From NCBI GenBank assembly GCA_947627355.1, contig CANQVX010000007.1, forward strand, positions 14,952 through 78,951: a DNA stretch of 64,000 bases, in the 5' to 3' direction. Below, piece after piece: positions 40,326-53,974 of this stretch. Made by a program: the position numbers and the translations under genes. The stretch comes from an uncultured Bacilli bacterium. GTDB taxonomy: Bacteria > Bacillota_I > Bacilli_A > RFN20 > CAG-631. Under the pieces are notes generated by a model. That model was not told the DNA's origin. It saw only the letters and a list, made by a program, of their open reading frames with translations, and ran no database searches. Numbering within the stretch: position 1 is the first letter of the stretch; every line of letters starts with the position of its first letter.

Positions 40326-41726
40326 TTGCTTGAAACATTTTCTAATAAAAATGATATTCCTTATGGTGCCTTAGAAGTTTATAGTGCATTTGCTAATAGT
40401 AATGGGGGAACTATTGTTTTAAGAATTGAAGAGACTTCTAAAAATATTTTTGAATCAGCAAAACTTAGTCTTAAAGAAATTGAAACATTACAAAAAGGAT
40501 TTTGGGATGCAATAAATAACTCACAAAAAGTTAGTGTTAATATTTTGGTCGACAAAGATGTTTATGTTGATGACTATGATGGCTATCCAGTTCTTGTAAT
40601 TAATGTTAAAAGAGCAAGTCGCTATGAAAAACCGGTTTATATTAATAACAACCTTTATAATGGTACTTATCGTAGAAATCATGAAGGCGATTATCATTGT
40701 AGCAAACAAGAAATTGACTTGATGATTAAAGATTCTAGCAGTCAATCAAATGATAAGACTTGCTTAGAAGAGTTTACAATAAATGATTTAAACTTAGAAT
40801 CAATTTCAAGTTATAAACAAATGTTAAAAGCATCAAATCCAGGTCATATCTTTTTAACTATGCCAGATGAACAATTTTATCTAAATCTAGGAATTGCCAA
40901 ATATGGAAATGATAATAAGATTCATCCAACTAGAGCTGGTTTACTTATGTTTGGTAAGGAATATCGGATCACTGATGAATTTATTCATTATTTTCTAGAT
41001 TATCAAGATCATCGAAATGAAACACCTGAAATTAGATGGATTGATAGAATTCAATCATCATCTGGGGATTGGAGTGGTAATGTTTTTGATTTCTTTTTTA
41101 AGGTCAATAACAAAATAAGTCAAGGCTTATCTATTCCTTTTAAATTAGATGGTGTTCAAAGAATAGATGATACTGATATGCATAAAGCTTTAAGAGAAGC
41201 ATTATGTAACACTTTATCAAATGCTGATTATTATGGAACTAGAGGAGTTGTTATTAAAAAATATCAAGATAGAATTGAGTTTGCAAATCCTGGTTGTATG
41301 AGAATGAGTATTGAAGAAGCCTTAGCCGGAGGCAATACTGATCCTAGAAATGAAACAATTTTAAAAATATTTAGTTTGATTAAAATTGGTGAAAGAGCTG
41401 GCACAGGCATTCAAACAATTATGAATGCAGTAAAGAAATCAGGTTATGATTCAATAAAAATTGAAGAAACTTTTAATCCAGATCGAACAAAAATGACAAT
41501 CTATTTAACATCCAATGATACAAACAATAATAGACTTTTATCAAATACCGAAAAAAAGTCGTTAGAATACATCAAAGAAAAAAAAGAAGTTTCAAGGAAA
41601 GATTTGGAAAAATATTTAGACTGTAAAAAAACAAAATGCATTAATGTTTTAAAAGTATTATTAGAAAAAGGATTTATAAGAAAAATTGATCTAGGAAAAA
41701 ATATTAAATACGCCACTAATTTTTAA
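40326..41726 (+). CDS. AlbA_2 (Schlafen-like DNA-binding) plus HATPase_c_4 ATP-binding regulator; main ORF lacks the AlbA_2 N-terminus and an RBS; probable frameshift relative to ATG 40288
   Basis: SAFANSNGGTIVLRIEE AlbA_2 core; C-terminal HATPase-like and wHTH; ATG 40288 with RBS AAAGGA is in the +1 frame and terminates after 28 codons. Confidence 0.6.
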   Translation: MLETFSNKNDIPYGALEVYSAFANSNGGTIVLRIEETSKNIFESAKLSLKEIETLQKGFWDAINNSQKVSVNILVDKDVYVDDYDGYPVLVINVKRASRYEKPVYINNNLYNGTYRRNHEGDYHCSKQEIDLMIKDSSSQSNDKTCLEEFTINDLNLESISSYKQMLKASNPGHIFLTMPDEQFYLNLGIAKYGNDNKIHPTRAGLLMFGKEYRITDEFIHYFLDYQDHRNETPEIRWIDRIQSSSGDWSGNVFDFFFKVNNKISQGLSIPFKLDGVQRIDDTDMHKALREALCNTLSNADYYGTRGVVIKKYQDRIEFANPGCMRMSIEEALAGGNTDPRNETILKIFSLIKIGERAGTGIQTIMNAVKKSGYDSIKIEETFNPDRTKMTIYLTSNDTNNNRLLSNTEKKSLEYIKEKKEVSRKDLEKYLDCKKTKCINVLKVLLEKGFIRKIDLGKNIKYATNF

Positions 41727-45031: not shown

Positions 45032-45658
45032 ATGTGGTGGAAAATCTTAGTTGCTACAATTTTATTTTTAATTGTTCTAGTTTTAATATTCTATAAACAG
45101 TTAAAAATGTTATATGTAGGATTAACAAAGAAAAAAAGAATTCAAAGGAACTTATATCACGCTTGTAAAAGCGAAAACTTTTTAACAATTTCTGATATCT
45201 TTATCGAAGTTAATCAAAAAAATATTCATCAAGCTGATACTATTATCTTTGCTAATAAATACATCTATGTTGTTAAACAACTTATCTATCTTGGTAGATT
45301 AGATGGTAATCGTGATGATGCTAGATGGCGTCTATATAATAAAAATGAAATGCAACTTGTAATCAATCCATTTAAAGATAACTATAAAAGAATTCAAAGA
45401 GTTGCTAATATCTTAAATCTATCATTAGATAACTTTAAAAGTATTGTTTGTCTTGCTAAAACCATTCAAAAAGGTGATATCAAGATAAATAACAATGATG
45501 AATTTATTTGTTTAGAAGATGAAGTAATACCAGCTATCAAAATGATTGAAAAAAATTCAAATGCTAATCCATATGATATCGATGAAGTAGAAAAATATGC
45601 TAACATGTTATATCGATATGGTTTAGACAATGAAAAGAAAGTGAAAAGAGGTAAATAA
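45032..45658 (+). CDS. membrane-anchored NERD-like (nuclease-related domain) protein
   Basis: N-terminal TM, about 200 aa; family assignment tentative. Confidence 0.4.
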   Translation: MWWKILVATILFLIVLVLIFYKQLKMLYVGLTKKKRIQRNLYHACKSENFLTISDIFIEVNQKNIHQADTIIFANKYIYVVKQLIYLGRLDGNRDDARWRLYNKNEMQLVINPFKDNYKRIQRVANILNLSLDNFKSIVCLAKTIQKGDIKINNNDEFICLEDEVIPAIKMIEKNSNANPYDIDEVEKYANMLYRYGLDNEKKVKRGK

Positions 45659-46589: not shown

Positions 46590-47009
46590 ATGGCAAGAAT
46601 AAAATATATTGATTCTGATGTTATATTACTTGCTAGAATTATGCGAGCAGAAGCCTTAGGTGAAGGCGATGTTGGTATGAAACTAGTAGGTAATGTTGTT
46701 GTTAATCGAGTTATTGCTACTTGTGGCACATTTAAAAAAACAGACACTATTTCAAAAGTTGTTTATCAAAAAAATCAATTTGCAGGAGTTAACACTCCTT
46801 TATTTAAATCATATCCAACAGTAAAAGAAAGAAGACTTGCTAGGCAATGTTTAGAATATTATACCAAGTGGCCTGCCACTAGAGCTTTGTTTTTTAAAAA
46901 TCCTGGAAAAGGTAAATCATGCCCTAAACAATTCTTTGGTTTGTTTGTTGGGAAATACAAAAAACATTGTTTCTATCGAGCAAATAACAACTTAAAGTGT
47001 GGATTATAA
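46590..47009 (+). CDS. cwlJ: spore cortex-lytic/germination cell wall hydrolase CwlJ-like
   Basis: 139 aa; LLARIMRAEALGEG, LVGNVVVNRV, KHCFY match CwlJ/SleB catalytic domain. Confidence 0.75.
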   Translation: MARIKYIDSDVILLARIMRAEALGEGDVGMKLVGNVVVNRVIATCGTFKKTDTISKVVYQKNQFAGVNTPLFKSYPTVKERRLARQCLEYYTKWPATRALFFKNPGKGKSCPKQFFGLFVGKYKKHCFYRANNNLKCGL

Positions 47010-47205: not shown

Positions 47206-50200
47206 ATGGAAGAAAACAATATTTTAGAAGGAATTGATTTAAGCAATGAAATTTTAAACAAAAGAACAAATAATTCTAAGTTCTACTTACAACCAGATGG
47301 TGCAGTTGTAATGATTTCTGATTTATGTGATGACGATATAATGTTAACAAGCACAAATTCAGACACAGAAATAACAAGTTTTGAATCAACCGGAACAACA
47401 GTTACATTACAAGAGCAAGAAGTAAAATTTGGAAAAGATAAAACAACTAATCAATTTTATAGAGCATATTTCCAATTTTATAATTATAGTTTTTTGAGTA
47501 AAGATGTCACTTCCGCAACATTAACTCTACACATTAACAATACAAAATATGCAACAGCTTTATATTATTCAATTTATCCTATTAAATCTAGAATTTTTGC
47601 TGGTGATAGACTACCAGAATATGATGAAAGCAGTCCTCTTGTAGAAAAGCAATATCCATCATCAGCAACATTAACATTAAATGTGCAAAAAATTATTGCA
47701 AATGATTATTGGGGAATAGTTATAAAGTCAAGTGAAGATAGTTCTGTACCTGGAACAGGAACATTTTATGGTTCAAAAAATTCATCTTCAAGTAATAGAC
47801 CGCAATTAATAGTCAAATATTATGATAGTATTTCTGTATCTAACAGCGAAAATGTAGGAACCATCACATTAAATGATAAAAGTTTTGCAAACATTAAGAA
47901 TATTAGCGGTTATAAAGAATTTAAACATTTATGTTTATCCCTTGGTGGAATTGATTTATATCATATCTATAATGATATTATCGGAAGATATTCATCTGTT
48001 AATAGTAAAAAAGCAACACAAGAATATCGTTTTGGTGTTGGTGCAAAATGTAATTTTCATATGAATCTATTTAATGAAAACAGATTAAATAATCAAATAA
48101 GTGATAGTACAATAACATTGATAGACGATAATGATAGTTATATGCCATTTAATAAAAAATATTATTATGTTAAAAATGGAAAAAGAATTTTTGTTAATGA
48201 AAACGAAATCAAAGAAAAGAATTTTAAATACATATATGTTGATAGTGATGGAATAGAATATGACATAACAATTTCATATTTTGATTTTTTAGGTCGAGAA
48301 ATACGTGTTGATAAATCAAAAGCTGCAATGTTTGAAGCGTTGGTAAATAATAAATACAATCTTACCTATTATGTAAAAGACATAAAAGGTAATGTTGTTG
48401 ATATTGAATATGATATTCAAACAAATACAGCCACATATAAAATGGCTCAATTAGAAGAATATAACGGAAATGTGTTTGTAGTAGATAATGATTTTATAAC
48501 AATTGAAAATGGAGTCAAAGTATATCATAAAAATGGTTTTAATATTAAAGTGCAAAACGATAGTTATTTACAAAAAGTATCAGTTATAAAACAAAACGAT
48601 AATCTTTATTTGCATTCAAACTATGTAATGTATGACATGTATGGGAATCCAACATGGGCAAGTTATAAGAAGCAAATATATGAAAAGATAAATATGAATG
48701 GTATTGATTTTTCAAATGTTAGCATACCAGAAGAATTATATTACCTAAGACAAGAATTGGATCAATTAGAAGAAACAAAAGAAAATATTCAAAAACAAAT
48801 CGAACAATACACAGAATATTTAACTTATAGTGATGCTAAAATAAAAGAAAAGATGTTGCAAATACAACAAGAACTACTTTTATATGAAATCAAAGATAAC
48901 ACAAATAAACAAATTGAAGAGAATGCAGATAATTTTATTAAAGTGTATGAATCAATGCCTGAAGATAAGCTTTGGCATATTCTTTGGCGGCAATCTGCAC
49001 AAGCTAAATATGAAGAATATGTTAGAAGAAACTTAACAATTGAATATCAAAATTTGCAATATTACTTAAATGAATTAAACATGTCTTCAATACCAAGAGA
49101 AGAAAATCATATCAAGAAAACAATAGAAGAATATGAAAGTGATTTAGATAATGTTGAAAAAGAAATAGAAAACACAAGAGCAAATATTATTGAATTAGTT
49201 GAACAAGAAAAGAGAAAACCAATTGATTGTTTATTATTAAATGGAACAGAAATATGGTTTGATTTTTTCGGTAAAATGGTACAAATCAAAAGAATTAAAC
49301 AGGAAATAAATATTAATTATGATAGAGATGATTATTTAATTAATATCACAAATCAAAACAATGAAAAATTATTTGATTTTGAATACGAAAATGGATTTGT
49401 AACAAAGATTACAGATGCAACTGGAAAATATGTAACACTAGAATATGATTCAAGTGATCGAATTCAACAAATAACTCATGATAACGGTGAATATGTAAAA
49501 TATGGATATTATGATTTTGGATTGCATAACGTTTATGATAACTGTGGAAGAAATTTAGCACTTGCTACAGGAAGTGTTGTCACATCATGTAGTTTTAATT
49601 CAAAAATAAGTGAAATAAATGATGAAGGCATTGTAACAGATACCCAAGAAATATTATATTATTATGAAACTATTGCAACAGCAAATAAGCATTGGAGAAT
49701 AATACGTGATGACAATGATATATATATTCATACATACGATAATTACTGTAATTTAGTAGGAGTTTTTGAATCAAACAATACAATTCCAAGTGAAAAAATA
49801 CAAGTAGGAAAAGAACCATCATATCGTTTTTATGGAACAGATAAAAAATATGATGTATATTTAAATTACAAGGCAAATCTTCTACAAAACGGAAGTTTCG
49901 AGGATGGTCTAAGTAATTGGATTTTAAGCAACTCAAATAATCAAATTACTAAAGATGCATATGTAGATGGTAGTAATGCAATAAATCTTTCATTAGGATA
50001 TATGTATCAAAATGTGCCAATTGAAAATGTAAAAGATTATAATTATTTAGTTTTTGGTGGTTATGCGTTAGCTAAATCAGCACCAGTTAGAATGAATCAA
50101 AGACAAATTGATGAATCATTAAACAATCAAATAAGTAGTGGTACAAAATTTGAATTAAGAGCACAACTAGAATACAATGATGGAAGCACAGAAGTATTTA

Positions 50201-53022
50201 ACACAACATTTGACTGGAAGATTACTGATTGGCAATTTGCGGCTGTTTTAATCAAAATAAACAAGCAAAAAACACTTTATAGATTTTGTGTTTATGTAGA
50301 TTTTAGTTCAAATACAGGTACTGCAATTTTTGATAATTTTGCACTTTGTGAAGCAAATGGTTCATATCAAGAAATAAACAGCGATGAAACTATAAATTAT
50401 AAAACCAATTTTGAAAGTGAAACATATTATAATAAATATGATGGATACAACCCAACCGAAAGCGTTTTTGTCGATAAAAACGGCTATAAATTAACAACAT
50501 ATTATACATATGATTTTTATAATCGCTTACTTCGTACAGAAACTAGTGAAGGAATAATAACAGCATATAAGTATGAAGAAAATGAAACGATACAAGAAAC
50601 ATATCATAAAGATGATCCAACAAACAAATTGATTCATCATGAAATTGTCGATGAAAACGGACGTTTACTAGAAGAGTTTGATAGCAAAGAAAATCAATCA
50701 ACCAAATATAATTATGTTAGTCCAATTAGTTCTTTGATTGATTTAATAGAAAATGGGGTTCAAAAAATCTATTATGGATATGATAATAGAACCGATGAAA
50801 TGGTAAGTCAAAGTCAAACAATTCATCAACAAGACGCCACATTAAGATATCATTACACAGATGGATTAGTAACAAGAATTGATAATGATTTTGATGTGAC
50901 AGTTAAATATGCATACGATAATAAAAAAAGATTGAAAAAAGCAATTGTTAATGAATTAATATTAGAAGATATTGAAACAAACGAAAATGTAACATTTACA
51001 ATCGATGGCAAACAATTTACAGGTGATGAAGTAAATACATTTTATGATTTGTTTTATGTAAGCAAAAAATATAATGATAAGAATCAAATTTTATCAGTTT
51101 CTGAGGGAAAGAAAAATTTTACACCTGTAGAAACAGTATTAACTTATAGTTACGATGAAAAAGATAGACTTGTAGCAATTAATGATAAAGTAAATGAAGA
51201 AAACAGTTATAGTTTTACATATAATAATAATGATTTATTAAGTGGTTTTGCTACAGATAAAGTGACTGGTTCAATCTTTTATAATACAAGGAACCAAATA
51301 TCTAAAGAGGTATATTCTTTTGATAATTCAGATAGTTTTAGTTATAGTTACGAATATGATGAAGCAAATCCATATCAATGTAATTATATATATACTCATT
51401 TAGATAAAAGTGCTAAAACAATCTTTAATTATGATTTACTATCTAGAGTAAAAAGTAAAGCAATCAATATATTAGATATGAATAGAACAATATATGAAGA
51501 ATACTATTCATATTGTAAAGATAATAACCAAACCAACATGCAAATAGCTAAGATAAATTATGTAGTCTATAATGCAATGGATGATTGTTTTGAATATAAA
51601 TATGATAGCAACCATAGAATTGTTGGAATAATGAAAAATGGTCTAGTTATAAACGAATACGAATATGATATTTTAAATAGATTAAGTGTTGAAAAAGATT
51701 ATAATAATCAAACAAAAATTAGATATCAATATGATATAGTAGGTAACATTTTAAAAAAATTCTATTATGATTTAAAGACAAATGAACTTGTTAAGACTGA
51801 TACATATACTTATACAAAAGGAACATTTGGTTTAAAATTATCAAAATTTAATGGAACAAATGTAAAAACATTTACACTAAATGATAAAAAACAATTGACA
51901 GAATATGATGGAACAACATTTACATATAATACTAGAGGATTAAGAATTAACAAAAATAATGCTAAGTATTATTATGATCATAACAATAGACTATTTAAAG
52001 AAGAAAATGGAACTAATACAATTTATTATTTCTATATCAACAATCAAGTTCAATATCTAAAAGTAAATGATACACAATACATATTAAGAAGAAACATATT
52101 CAATGATGTAACTCACATTTATAATTTTGAAGGTAAACTAGTAGCATATTATGAATATGATTCTTGGGGCAATCATAAAGTATACGACGAAACAGGAAAA
52201 GTTAATGAAAATGCCGATTTTATCGGAAATATTAATCCAATCAGATATCGTGGATATTACTATGATGTAGAAACCAAACTTTATTATTGTAATGCTAGAT
52301 ATTATAATCCTGAACATGGAAGATGGATAAGCGAAGATTCAATCGATTATTTGAATCTTGCCACTATTAACGGATTAAATTTCTATTCATATTGTAATAA
52401 CAACCCTATAATGTATGTTGATCCAAGTGGACATATTATAGGATTAATTATTGGATTACTTGCTGGTGCATTTATTGTAGGCTCTGCCACAAGTGCTATA
52501 AGCCAGGGTGTTACTTATGGTTGGGATAATATTGACATCTTGCAAGTTTTTACTGATGGATTATTTGCACTAGGTTCTACTGCATTAGCCATGACAGGAA
52601 TTGGTTCAATAGGATCTGCAATTATAGGAGCAGGAATGGGTTTTGCACAATATGCAATCGGCGCATCACGCCACGGAGAAGATATAACATTGCTTGGTTC
52701 ATTAACATCAATTGGTCTAGGTGCTATCGGTGGTGCTATAAGTGGTGCTGGTGCAAGAAACAATACAAGTATCATTAAAAATATGAAATTAACTGGTAGT
52801 GGAGCCAGCGCAGTTAAAGCAATTACAACTGCAACTAATAGATATTTCGCCGGAGAGATTTCAATGAGAGGTCTCCAAGCAACAACAAATCTATGGGGGA
52901 ATGCAGCATTAAATGCTGTACAAAACGCAATAGCACCTGCAATTGCTAGAGGAATGATTTGGGGAACTGGAAAAGTTCTACTTTGTACAATTGGTTCTAC
53001 AATACTAAATAATATATTCTAA
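47206..53022 (+). CDS. RHS/YD-repeat polymorphic toxin (1938 aa)
   Basis: many YD repeats (YEYD, RYQYDIVGN, YDxxxR), RHS core YYCNARYYNPEHGRWISEDSIDY ending DPSGH, then variable C-terminal domain; RBS GAGGTGA. Confidence 0.85.
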   Translation: MEENNILEGIDLSNEILNKRTNNSKFYLQPDGAVVMISDLCDDDIMLTSTNSDTEITSFESTGTTVTLQEQEVKFGKDKTTNQFYRAYFQFYNYSFLSKDVTSATLTLHINNTKYATALYYSIYPIKSRIFAGDRLPEYDESSPLVEKQYPSSATLTLNVQKIIANDYWGIVIKSSEDSSVPGTGTFYGSKNSSSSNRPQLIVKYYDSISVSNSENVGTITLNDKSFANIKNISGYKEFKHLCLSLGGIDLYHIYNDIIGRYSSVNSKKATQEYRFGVGAKCNFHMNLFNENRLNNQISDSTITLIDDNDSYMPFNKKYYYVKNGKRIFVNENEIKEKNFKYIYVDSDGIEYDITISYFDFLGREIRVDKSKAAMFEALVNNKYNLTYYVKDIKGNVVDIEYDIQTNTATYKMAQLEEYNGNVFVVDNDFITIENGVKVYHKNGFNIKVQNDSYLQKVSVIKQNDNLYLHSNYVMYDMYGNPTWASYKKQIYEKINMNGIDFSNVSIPEELYYLRQELDQLEETKENIQKQIEQYTEYLTYSDAKIKEKMLQIQQELLLYEIKDNTNKQIEENADNFIKVYESMPEDKLWHILWRQSAQAKYEEYVRRNLTIEYQNLQYYLNELNMSSIPREENHIKKTIEEYESDLDNVEKEIENTRANIIELVEQEKRKPIDCLLLNGTEIWFDFFGKMVQIKRIKQEININYDRDDYLINITNQNNEKLFDFEYENGFVTKITDATGKYVTLEYDSSDRIQQITHDNGEYVKYGYYDFGLHNVYDNCGRNLALATGSVVTSCSFNSKISEINDEGIVTDTQEILYYYETIATANKHWRIIRDDNDIYIHTYDNYCNLVGVFESNNTIPSEKIQVGKEPSYRFYGTDKKYDVYLNYKANLLQNGSFEDGLSNWILSNSNNQITKDAYVDGSNAINLSLGYMYQNVPIENVKDYNYLVFGGYALAKSAPVRMNQRQIDESLNNQISSGTKFELRAQLEYNDGSTEVFNTTFDWKITDWQFAAVLIKINKQKTLYRFCVYVDFSSNTGTAIFDNFALCEANGSYQEINSDETINYKTNFESETYYNKYDGYNPTESVFVDKNGYKLTTYYTYDFYNRLLRTETSEGIITAYKYEENETIQETYHKDDPTNKLIHHEIVDENGRLLEEFDSKENQSTKYNYVSPISSLIDLIENGVQKIYYGYDNRTDEMVSQSQTIHQQDATLRYHYTDGLVTRIDNDFDVTVKYAYDNKKRLKKAIVNELILEDIETNENVTFTIDGKQFTGDEVNTFYDLFYVSKKYNDKNQILSVSEGKKNFTPVETVLTYSYDEKDRLVAINDKVNEENSYSFTYNNNDLLSGFATDKVTGSIFYNTRNQISKEVYSFDNSDSFSYSYEYDEANPYQCNYIYTHLDKSAKTIFNYDLLSRVKSKAINILDMNRTIYEEYYSYCKDNNQTNMQIAKINYVVYNAMDDCFEYKYDSNHRIVGIMKNGLVINEYEYDILNRLSVEKDYNNQTKIRYQYDIVGNILKKFYYDLKTNELVKTDTYTYTKGTFGLKLSKFNGTNVKTFTLNDKKQLTEYDGTTFTYNTRGLRINKNNAKYYYDHNNRLFKEENGTNTIYYFYINNQVQYLKVNDTQYILRRNIFNDVTHIYNFEGKLVAYYEYDSWGNHKVYDETGKVNENADFIGNINPIRYRGYYYDVETKLYYCNARYYNPEHGRWISEDSIDYLNLATINGLNFYSYCNNNPIMYVDPSGHIIGLIIGLLAGAFIVGSATSAISQGVTYGWDNIDILQVFTDGLFALGSTALAMTGIGSIGSAIIGAGMGFAQYAIGASRHGEDITLLGSLTSIGLGAIGGAISGAGARNNTSIIKNMKLTGSGASAVKAITTATNRYFAGEISMRGLQATTNLWGNAALNAVQNAIAPAIARGMIWGTGKVLLCTIGSTILNNIF
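52435..53022 (+). other. C-terminal toxin domain of RHS protein: Gly/Ala-rich glycine-zipper hydrophobic domain (predicted membrane-inserting)
   Basis: about 195 aa after DPSGH: repeated GxxxG/AxxxG (IIGLIIGLLAGAFIVG, GIGSIGSAIIGAGMG, GLGAIGGAISGAG). Confidence 0.55.
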
Positions 53023-53048: not shown

Positions 53049-53444
53049 ATGAAAAGTACAGACATTATTGATTTTTATCTTATACAACTAGTTATATTAA
53101 TGTTATGCTTCTCAAATTTGATACTAGGAGGATCCTCTGATAAATATTTATCTGATTATACATTAAAAAAACTATCAGTTCCCAAAAAATCATTTTTAAG
53201 GAAACTAGTAATATTTAAAGAAAATAGATTTACAGTTCCTGATTCATTCTTATATATAAGAGTAATACCATACTTAATAGAATGGTTGTTTATTATTATA
53301 GGTACAATATTGATATTAATTAATCAATTTGTAGTTTACTTTATTCCAAGTTCTGCTTTTCTTATTTTTGGTTATTGTAATTTAGGTTTATATTTTGCTT
53401 ATGAAATATTATTAATGTTTTTAGGATATGGCATCCATTATTAA
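53049..53444 (+). CDS. candidate immunity protein (small multi-TM protein) for the RHS C-terminal toxin
   Basis: 131 aa, 3-4 TM helices, 26 nt downstream of toxin stop with RBS AAGGAGG. Confidence 0.5.
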   Translation: MKSTDIIDFYLIQLVILMLCFSNLILGGSSDKYLSDYTLKKLSVPKKSFLRKLVIFKENRFTVPDSFLYIRVIPYLIEWLFIIIGTILILINQFVVYFIPSSAFLIFGYCNLGLYFAYEILLMFLGYGIHY

Positions 53445-53460
53445 ATCTTTATAAATACAA

Positions 53461-53511
53461 AAAGTGAAATCAAATATGAGTAATTAGTTTCATATTAATT
53501 GATTTCACTTT
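53461..53511. terminator. nested-hairpin bidirectional terminator
   Basis: perfect 13-bp arms AAAGTGAAATCAA / TTGATTTCACTTT enclosing a second 6-bp stem ATATGA/TCATAT. Confidence 0.55.
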
Positions 53512-53515
53512 TAAT

Positions 53516-53974
53516 TTATTTAATGTATTTTATTTGGTAGTGCTTGCACCATTCTATAGCTATTTCTTCATATTTCATTTCTTGAAACTTATACCATTTA
53601 TCAATGATATGGTTATAGATACAAATGTTTTTAAATCTTCTAAAGGCACCTTTACCTTTAATTGCTATAAATAATTTACTTGCTAGATTTTTATCTTTTA
53701 TGGTATCTATAAATTCTCCCATCATATGATAAGGATTTATATCATATCTGGTTGGTAAACAAATATAATTATTGGCATCATCTAATATATCAGAATGTGA
53801 ATCAGCCATTTCATTTGTATATATTAACTTATAGGTATCAGGATCTAAATAATATGTAAAATACATATCACCAGCAACAATTGATATAGCATCTATTATG
53901 TCTGATAATTTTAATTCTTTCATAATGTTTTCCATTCTTACTTTTACAAATCTATTATAACTTTTAATAAACAA
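53516..53974 (-). CDS. hypothetical cytoplasmic protein (possible orphan immunity/accessory protein)
   Basis: 152 aa, no TM, convergent on RHS locus. Confidence 0.4.
   Translation of the reverse strand: MFIKSYNRFVKVRMENIMKELKLSDIIDAISIVAGDMYFTYYLDPDTYKLIYTNEMADSHSDILDDANNYICLPTRYDINPYHMMGEFIDTIKDKNLASKLFIAIKGKGAFRRFKNICIYNHIIDKWYKFQEMKYEEIAIEWCKHYQIKYIK

Follow-up and report, generated by a model that had tools for sequence, protein, structure and literature searches.

The uncultured Bacilli bacterium considered here (GTDB lineage Bacillota_I; Bacilli_A; RFN20; CAG-631; assembly GCA_947627355.1) carries, within a 64,000-nucleotide (nt) stretch of contig CANQVX010000007.1 (positions 14,952 to 78,951 of the forward strand; hereafter the window), an intact gene for a 1938-amino-acid (aa) RHS/YD-repeat polymorphic toxin. 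The last 195 aa of this protein, which we call the C-terminal domain (CT), are rich in glycine and alanine and poor in charge, and 26 nt lie between the toxin stop codon and the start of a gene for a 131-aa membrane protein, the candidate for cognate immunity. Both the toxin/immunity relationship of the two products and the non-enzymatic, membrane-type character of the CT are well supported. The coordinates of these and the surrounding features are collected in Table 1.

Table 1 Features of the RHS toxin locus, in window coordinates; helices are those of the predicted CT model and CT residues are counted from the predicted cleavage site.
Feature	Coordinates	Strand	Basis
Cell-wall hydrolase of the SleB/CwlJ type (Hydrolase_2, E 1.3e-16), directly ahead of the RHS gene	46590–47009		
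RHS/YD-repeat polymorphic toxin gene, intact, 1938 aa	47206–53022	+	Open reading frame, domain matches
Rhs-associated core/aspartyl-protease plug, aa 1651–1743, ending YVDPSGH	52156–52434	+	TIGR03696, Tse5 alignment
CT, 195 aa, Gly/Ala-rich, charge-poor, predicted all-helical single domain	52435–53019	+	Domain boundary, composition, AlphaFold2 model
Helix 1, CT 2–28, IGLIIGLLAGAFIVGSATSAISQGVTY	52438–52518	+	Hydropathy, AlphaFold2, conservation
GWDNID loop and helix 2 (CT 35–52)	52519–52590	+	Conservation, AlphaFold2
Helix 3 (CT 58–79), ladder G57-S61-G65-G69, then QYA	52606–52671	+	Conservation, AlphaFold2
Helix 4 (CT 86–103) with best-conserved zipper G96xxxG100xxxG104xG106, then N109	52690–52752	+	Conservation, AlphaFold2
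Helices 5–7 (CT 110–194), amphipathic, Ala/Thr/Asn-rich, tail moderately hydrophobic	52762–53016	+	AlphaFold2, conservation
Antisense open reading frame, 86 aa, Pro/Ala/Ile-rich, not a gene	52515–52775	-	Open reading frame list, homologue comparison
Shine-Dalgarno sequence AAGGAGG, 10 nt ahead of the immunity start codon	53032–53038	+	Read from sequence
Cognate immunity candidate, 131 aa, polytopic membrane protein	53049–53444	+	Hydropathy, linkage
Inverted repeat, 28 nt and AT-rich, lying between the convergent immunity and UPF0158 genes	53449–53523	.	Inverted-repeat search
UPF0158-family protein (E 1e-8), convergent with the immunity gene	53516–53974	-	Pfam

The 1938-aa protein combines what defines an RHS/YD-repeat polymorphic toxin: the repeats, a DPxG(L/H) core with two aspartates, a variable CT with an immunity gene, and orphan cassettes. 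A Pfam search finds the RHS repeats (PF05593, E 7.6e-7), and in NCBIfam the Rhs_assc_core model TIGR03696 covers aa 1651–1743 and scores 75.9 bits (cutoff 32.5); there is an RHS_core match besides. A search of PDB sequences matches at least six Rhs shell structures, including that of Tse5 (8cp6_B), and phmmer aligns residues 1060–1120 of the 1121 in this shell chain with the core end of our protein, the alignment stopping at the cleavage residue. The Rhs-associated core domain terminates at ...NNNPIMYVDPSGH, and because the TIGR03696 match stops exactly at ...YVDPSGH we place the CT at aa 1744–1938, with the stop codon at 53020–53022. A first-pass annotation, made from the sequence alone, had described a hydrophobic Gly/Ala-rich domain of about 195 aa after DPSGH; the domain is exactly 195 aa long and contains all three peptides quoted there. 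In Tse5 the cut lies between Leu1168 and Ile1169 and is catalysed by D1141 and D1164 (PMC10684867). Comparing the sequences directly (Tse5 taken from the supplement of PMC10684867, with a slash marking the cut), RWISED...YVDPSGH/I lines up with RYASQD(1141)...AYD(1164)PTGL/I, and D1711 and D1739 occupy the catalytic positions D1141 and D1164. By this analogy, self-cleavage is predicted to occur between H1743 and I1744. At the other end of the protein, aa 1–700 (window 47206–49300) contain no confident Pfam or NCBIfam domain, and a Lys/Glu-rich, coiled-coil-like stretch lies around aa 500–680.

The composition of the protein changes at this boundary. Glycine, alanine and isoleucine make up 16.4%, 14.9% and 13.8% of the CT and the four charged residues D, E, K and R together 7.7%, whereas the RHS core has 4.4% glycine, 3.2% alanine and 25% charged residues. 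The GC content is 25.8% across the RHS core (47206–52434) and climbs to 38.6% in the CT (52435–53019; window average 28.3%), mainly because of GGN and GCN codons. Orphan cassettes in relatives suggest that recombination could also have brought in the CT/immunity cassette.

Across about 100 non-redundant relatives, ten positions of the CT (G16, S20, Q24, G29, G55, G69, G96, G100, G104 and G106) are each conserved at 85–96%. The conserved ladders are G16-S20-Q24, G57-S61-G65-G69 and G96xxxG100xxxG104xG106; G96xxxG100xxxG104 is invariant in a narrow alignment of the CT (A2) and 87–96% conserved in the roughly 100 non-redundant members. Helix 1 carries the longer ladder G3/G7/G11/G16/S20/Q24, the last three positions of which are conserved at 85–91%. 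The CT has the mark of glycine-zipper membrane toxins, a conserved (G/A/S)xxxGxxxG in an apolar helix. Its conserved columns hold Gly, Ser, Gln, Asn, Thr and Tyr together with a single acidic residue, D41; none of catalytic type, whether His, Cys, Lys or Glu, is conserved in these relatives. This bears on the possibility that the CT is a small enzymatic toxin whose fold or active site has diverged too far for searches to recognise. Pfam, NCBIfam, PDB profile and Foldseek searches all fail to match the CT to an enzymatic toxin family (nuclease, deaminase, ADP-ribosyltransferase, NADase or peptidase), the conserved positions are mostly glycine in a domain with so few charged residues, and the immunity protein is membranous; we regard an enzyme as very improbable, and the first-pass view that the domain is not enzyme-like, in family, fold or catalytic residues, stands.

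An AlphaFold2 (AF2) model built from a broad alignment of 50 diverse CTs (A4) is confident in all five models, the best of which has a predicted local distance difference test score (pLDDT) of 93.1 and a predicted template modelling score (pTM) of 0.80 and forms one domain; a run on 33 close homologues (A1) gave a pLDDT of 42.7 and that model was discarded. The model has seven helices, at CT 2–28, 35–52, 58–79, 86–103, 110–116, 121–138 and 144–194 (H1 to H7). The first four are charge-poor helices of 18–27 residues and are followed by amphipathic ones: three of the four (H1, H2 and H4) are apolar, have 0–1 charges and show low hydrophobic moments, and H3 consists to 59% of Gly, Ala and Ser. 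The amphipathic part runs from H5 to H7a, and H7b is of moderate hydrophobicity. H1 begins directly after the cleavage site and is the most hydrophobic segment of the CT, with Kyte–Doolittle values up to 2.27, and around H2 the family shares the motif GW(D/E)NIN..QV..DG. These four helices and a co-evolving polytopic membrane partner predict membrane association of the CT, in line with the first-pass annotation. Foldseek finds no significant neighbour of the model in the PDB (best E 0.37, TM-score ≤ 0.28), and the weak top matches there are mostly integral membrane proteins. In BFVD there is likewise no significant neighbour; the best match, which falls short of significance (probability 0.85, TMq 0.41, E 0.34, 203 aligned columns), is A0A8S5LUV7_1 of Podoviridae sp. 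ctrub15, a 900-aa fragment of a phage ‘crystallin beta/gamma motif-containing protein’, which could be a phage-borne relative of the helical domain.

The CT defines a large, unannotated, RHS-restricted family. A word-indexed search returned 40 close relatives; when profiles were searched exhaustively with HMMER, the count rose to 375 representative clusters at E ≤ 1e-3, 133 of them at E ≤ 1e-10. In essentially every member the domain starts directly after ...NNP....DPxG. RHS repeats were found in 23 of the 24 longer carriers scanned, and no LXG, PAAR, CdiA or other delivery domain in any of the 24. Searches of Pfam, of NCBIfam and of the PDB, by sequence or by profile, give no match for the family, and tblastn against plasmids gives none for the CT. 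We judged PDB profile matches to Vip1, UspA1 and haemagglutinin (E 0.07–0.5) to be chance low-complexity matches, and weak Pfam matches of single members (MTHFR_C, AAA_26, and holin at E 0.18) were rejected as inconsistent across members. The only organism names attached to the relatives are Thomasclavelia (Erysipelotrichales) and a Clostridiales metagenome-assembled genome (MAG). CT lengths fall between 60 and 215 aa in 141 of 143 cases and between 160 and 215 aa in 130, with two outliers of about 250 aa; because of this narrow range, family members do not carry a separate enzyme domain appended to the CT.

The protein encoded downstream was taken for a membrane protein in the first-pass annotation, and it is indeed hydrophobic and polytopic: a first transmembrane (TM) segment at about aa 6–28 is followed by a basic loop (aa 31–65, 9 K/R) and then by 66 hydrophobic residues that would provide 2–3 more TM segments. 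It belongs to no Pfam or NCBIfam family, and its own family comprises 345 clusters, none of them named. Homologues of the 131-aa protein lie directly downstream of CT homologues in the related loci L001, L002, L003, L005 and L006–L009, and toxin and partner diverge together. Identity to the window is 63% for the toxin and 55% for the partner in L006–L009, about 62% and 52% in L001, about 50% and 37% in L005 (where the RHS protein is full-length, at 1942 aa), about 50% and 29% in L002, and about 43% and 31% in L003. Three of these regions (L001 3967–9210, L003 1–9416 and L006–L009 5171–8393) hold tandem, N-terminally truncated RHS-CT genes with a small gene after each, and the arrays mix the CT family with other unannotated pairs (for example 181 + 147 aa and 90 + 158 aa); in L006–L009 there is no full-length RHS gene within 8 kb of the orphan array. 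Arrays of truncated orphan cassettes, each a CT with a small gene, are a hallmark of polymorphic toxin loci. Linkage, co-divergence and orphan cassettes therefore make it very likely that the CT and the 131-aa membrane protein are a toxin/immunity pair.

The same loci speak to the possibility that the CT is no toxin at all and instead anchors a surface RHS protein in the membrane or extends it structurally, next to an unrelated gene for a membrane protein downstream. Such a role would suit the strong TM-like helix at the start of the CT and the missing export signal, but it leaves the CT as a tail beyond a conserved self-cleavage motif. It also sits badly with truncated orphan cassettes that are always paired with the same small membrane protein, among other CT/immunity-like pairs, with the co-divergence of toxin and partner, and with a partner family (345 clusters) that is more widespread than the toxin, as immunity genes are expected to be. 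We find it hardly credible, and retain a toxin with its immunity protein. A single-protein search of the genome collection returned one distant locus, L004, in a Clostridiales MAG. There (611–1258) a distant CT homologue of 186 aa is followed by a 215-aa open reading frame (ORF) with hydrophobic N-terminal segments rather than by a protein of about 130 aa; this ORF may be a different immunity type serving a divergent subfamily.

The nearest functional precedent is the CT of Tse5 (PA2684, RhsP1) of Pseudomonas aeruginosa. Tse5-CT (149 aa) has no predicted enzymatic function, inserts spontaneously into lipid, combines TM and amphipathic helices and depolarises cells, and Tse5 is neutralised by a membrane protein with two TM segments, Tsi5 (PMC9637101). 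The Rhs shell shields the toxic CT inside the producer (PMC10684867; PMC12744356). Comparing our broad alignment A4 with an alignment of the Tse5-CT family (A5), hhalign gives 86.7% probability and E 4.4e-6; with both trimmed strictly to the CT, the probability is 76.5% and the score 37.0 over 48 columns. The aligned span, CT 3–51 against Tse5-CT 4–76, pairs the post-cleavage Gly-rich helices, GWDN with NWDN, and IN..QV..DG with INW..V..SAA. Among 400 column-shuffled controls the highest score is 21.7, against 37 for the real alignment; the reversed profile scores 12.1 and a TM-rich immunity alignment about 10. These profile alignments are suggestive of remote homology between the first hairpin (two helices) of the CT and Tse5-CT; membership of one family is not proven.

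By analogy with Tse5, the RHS shell would enclose the hydrophobic 195-aa CT and the aspartyl-protease plug, through D1711 and D1739, would cut between H1743 and I1744. At the target cell the released H1–H4 would insert into the cytoplasmic membrane and pack or oligomerise through their small-residue ladders, above all G96xxxG100xxxG104, and the resulting ion-conducting lesion would dissipate the membrane potential. The amphipathic helices 5–7 could form an interfacial part or a part needed in the soluble state, and the co-transcribed 131-aa polytopic protein would protect the producer's own membrane. The depolarising or pore-forming action is what we infer here, and taken as a whole we consider it fairly probable that the CT is an RHS-borne, membrane-inserting and depolarising toxic cargo neutralised by the 131-aa membrane protein.

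The glycine ladders also bear on a different use of the membrane, in which the CT resides there without forming a pore and acts by binding and blocking a protein embedded there: a transporter, for instance, a complex of the respiratory or Rnf type, or machinery of the lipid II cycle. Conserved polar residues within the apolar helices (S20, Q24 and D41) could form a specific binding surface, and a defined, confident monomer fold suits a specific binder as well as a pore subunit. AcrB-dependent CdiA ionophores need a target membrane protein (PMC11630599), and a Bacteroidales type VI secretion system (T6SS) toxin is reported to be Rnf-dependent (PMC12718326). Those precedents, however, still depolarise, with the protein serving as receptor. 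Moreover, the best-conserved features of the CT are glycine ladders typical of helix–helix oligomerisation, and the possible homology to the pore-former Tse5-CT points the same way; a pure binder or blocker is unlikely.

Several observations weigh against the depolarising membrane toxin. The first-pass annotation saw the CT as dominated by GxxxG/AxxxG repeats, and the shift in composition and the conserved glycines bear this out, but the motif counts do not: the 7 GxxxG motifs have P = 0.21 and the 35 small-xxx-small motifs P = 0.04 against composition-preserving shuffles. As these counts are not clearly above the shuffles, the impression of repeats is mostly one of composition and the count is weak evidence; the signal beyond chance is the conservation of particular glycines across relatives, not the number of motifs. 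CT 1–23 is the sole segment above the classical Kyte–Doolittle threshold of 1.6, with CT 42–78 and 84–107 marginally hydrophobic at 1.3–1.67; the same three hydrophobic blocks appear in the family-averaged hydropathy profile. A soluble helical bundle would be just as compatible with the compact, confident AF2 monomer. The Tse5-CT alignment is limited to about 48–57 columns, none past helix 2, and depends on the broad profile: the narrow alignment A2 scores 17.9 against A5, which is not significant, and reaches 0.09% probability against the single Tse5-CT sequence in hhalign. In HMMER, A2 gives -4.5 bits against Tse5-CT and the broad profile 8.2 bits, a value reached by 4–15 of 2000 shuffles.

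Two further points concern export and the tail. No signal peptide, LXG (PF04740) or PAAR N-terminus is recognisable in the RHS protein by Pfam, NCBIfam or inspection of the sequence; most full-length carriers of the CT family also lack a signal peptide, which is present in two (P0068 and P0078). PAAR, VgrG and T6SS domains are absent from the RHS protein and from the neighbouring genes, and no secretion-system genes, those for type VII secretion (T7SS) included, were identified among the window ORFs examined. The C-terminal half of the CT is more variable than the N-terminal 110 aa, the conserved core of the family: column occupancy is about 50%, and several tail types occur in a modular manner across subfamilies. 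Many C-terminal halves share the motif ISx(K/R)G(L/F)Q..NL(W/Y)G, and in one subfamily (for example P0039, P0081, P0084, P0092 and P0096) a strongly basic tail (...WKSASKGI.RE.RRAN.KYA.KQIAKY...) replaces the Ala/Thr-rich one. We considered these P0039-like tails as counterparts of the basic tail of Tse5-CT; the two are alike in character and do not align, only a 20-column INW motif being aligned.

This uneven conservation would fit a bipartite CT in which the N-terminal 110 aa or so are an entry module and the variable C-terminal 85 aa or so a cytoplasmic warhead. CdiA-CTs are built in this way, from an entry domain and a toxin (PMC11630599), and translocation of the T6SS DNase Tde1 is reported to need a glycine zipper (PMC10240207). 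Against such a division, AF2 returns the whole CT as one domain, no family member has a larger appended domain, and the tails, of at most about 90 aa, are Ala/Thr/Asn-rich and amphipathic with a hydrophobic end, have no conserved catalytic residues and match no family. The immunity protein, too, is almost wholly embedded in the membrane and would offer a soluble warhead only its 35-aa basic loop. We hold a bipartite toxin to be decidedly unlikely and keep to the CT as a single membrane-acting domain.

The inverted repeat behind the immunity gene is probably a bidirectional terminator; a consensus terminator scan does not report this hairpin, probably because its stem lacks the G-C pairs that the scan requires. 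The other loci showed no connection between the convergent UPF0158 gene and the toxin system. We considered the SleB-like hydrolase encoded upstream of the RHS gene as a wall-breaching partner and dropped it: the related RHS gene of L005 has no homologue of it on the upstream side, which makes a functional link doubtful. Defence-type genes lie further upstream, at 40326–41726 and 45032–45658, and encode a Schlafen/AlbA_2 plus HATPase_c_4 protein and a NERD-domain protein. The antisense ORF opposite the CT had been dismissed as spurious from the start, and homologues agree: in the window and the five homologous loci tested alike, the in-register antisense frame runs for 67–167 codons without a stop, and neither its start nor its end is conserved. 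Since an open frame is expected opposite GGN/GCN-rich (Gly/Ala) coding sequence, this ORF is a compositional artefact.

The locus suggests that gut Firmicutes (Thomasclavelia-like genomes) possess an abundant toxin/immunity family that is RHS-specific and unannotated, with 375 toxin and 345 immunity clusters and with arrays of orphan cassettes. In the literature searched, the membrane-depolarising polymorphic toxins of Firmicutes are all LXG/T7SS substrates. To our knowledge, Tse5, from a Gram-negative T6SS, is so far the one characterised example of an Rhs-borne pore-forming cargo. If our reading is true, one toxin domain and one immunity domain await a name in Pfam/NCBIfam, Tse5-type cargo extends across the Gram divide, and the locus offers a tractable case for the storage of a very hydrophobic toxin in an RHS shell and its export without a known signal. 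A bolder version is possible, although we regard it as rather doubtful. The CT would found an undescribed seven-helix pore-forming family that has no solved relative and occurs only on RHS proteins of gut Firmicutes, and it would have in common with Tse5-CT an ancient ‘post-cleavage insertion hairpin’ (Gly-rich helix, WDN, INW..V). RHS shells would then repeatedly have chaperoned one membrane-inserting cargo lineage across the Gram divide, here with an exit that uses neither a Sec signal nor LXG/T7SS nor PAAR/T6SS. Because the concept of a glycine-zipper membrane toxin with membrane immunity is well established, the finding, of use for annotation and open to testing, is useful to a specialist rather than surprising.

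The first-pass annotation had proposed glycine-zipper CdiA-CT and TspA-like domains as comparators. As every carrier examined is an RHS protein, these hold as analogies only; LXG/T7SS glycine-zipper toxins and CdiA-CT ionophores are functional analogues on different carriers, and Tse5-CT is the better comparator. The LXG group, compared here by description, comprises TspA-TsaI and EsxX-ExiCD of S. aureus, TelE-TipE of S. gallolyticus and LXG-T2 of S. suis. Like the present family, these toxins come from Gram-positive producers and have non-enzymatic helical CTs and orphan modules; their (G/A/S)xxxGxxxG motifs are essential for toxicity, they cause depolarisation, and polytopic membrane immunity is known for them (TsaI, ExiCD). 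Such immunity is the rule for channel-forming effectors (PMC12744356). Unlike them, the CT sits on an RHS scaffold, with no LXG in the RHS protein or in the 24 carriers, and a PDB profile search turned up no TspA, TelE or EsxX chain. LXG systems also have DUF5085-type cytoplasmic immunity, which does not occur here and is presumably replaced by shielding within the RHS shell, as argued for Tse5 (PMC12744356). The CdiA-CT ionophores of E. coli (EC93-type) are small helical CTs with a putative glycine zipper that abolish the membrane potential and have membrane CdiI immunity (PMC11630599). By description, they differ in that a CdiA filament carries them, their entry domain is separate and they depend on a receptor, AcrB for example, whereas the present CT is a single predicted domain on an RHS protein.

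WapA and other Gram-positive RHS toxins (B. subtilis, S. suis) share with our locus the RHS repeats, the orphan cassettes and a variable CT that has its immunity gene beside it. The characterised CTs of B. subtilis WapA are known as tRNases, whereas the CT here is of membrane type. WapA carries a Sec signal peptide and a region that binds the wall (PMC12704120), and in our protein no signal peptide is detectable. The pore-forming domains of colicins A, E1 and Ia are, like the CT, helical and about 200 aa long; they insert buried hydrophobic helices into the cytoplasmic membrane and are countered by polytopic membrane proteins as immunity. Pfam gives no colicin match at E ≤ 10, and the best 50 Foldseek matches in the PDB include no colicin, with its ten-helix fold, and none at E ≤ 0.001; the CT differs from colicins in its Gly-ladder content and RHS context.

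Tse5/Tsi5 is the closest known system. In both proteins an RHS shell ends in a DPxG self-cleavage site, a predicted one in our case, with both catalytic Asp positions conserved, and an Ile-started, Gly/Ala-rich hydrophobic helix follows directly. Both CTs are small (149 aa in Tse5, 195 aa here), without predicted enzyme function, and consist of TM-like and amphipathic helices, and in both cases an integral-membrane immunity protein is encoded just downstream, with two TM segments in Tsi5 and 3–4 hydrophobic segments here. The present CT is about 46 aa longer, has an extra glycine-zipper helix pair, H3–H4 (G96/G100/G104), lacks the Cys pair and the basic tail of the Tse5-CT family, and belongs to an AT-rich Firmicute host without PAAR or VgrG/T6SS context. 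New here is the unannotated family; its kind, in which the CT of a polymorphic toxin acts on membranes and the immunity protein is itself a membrane protein, is known.

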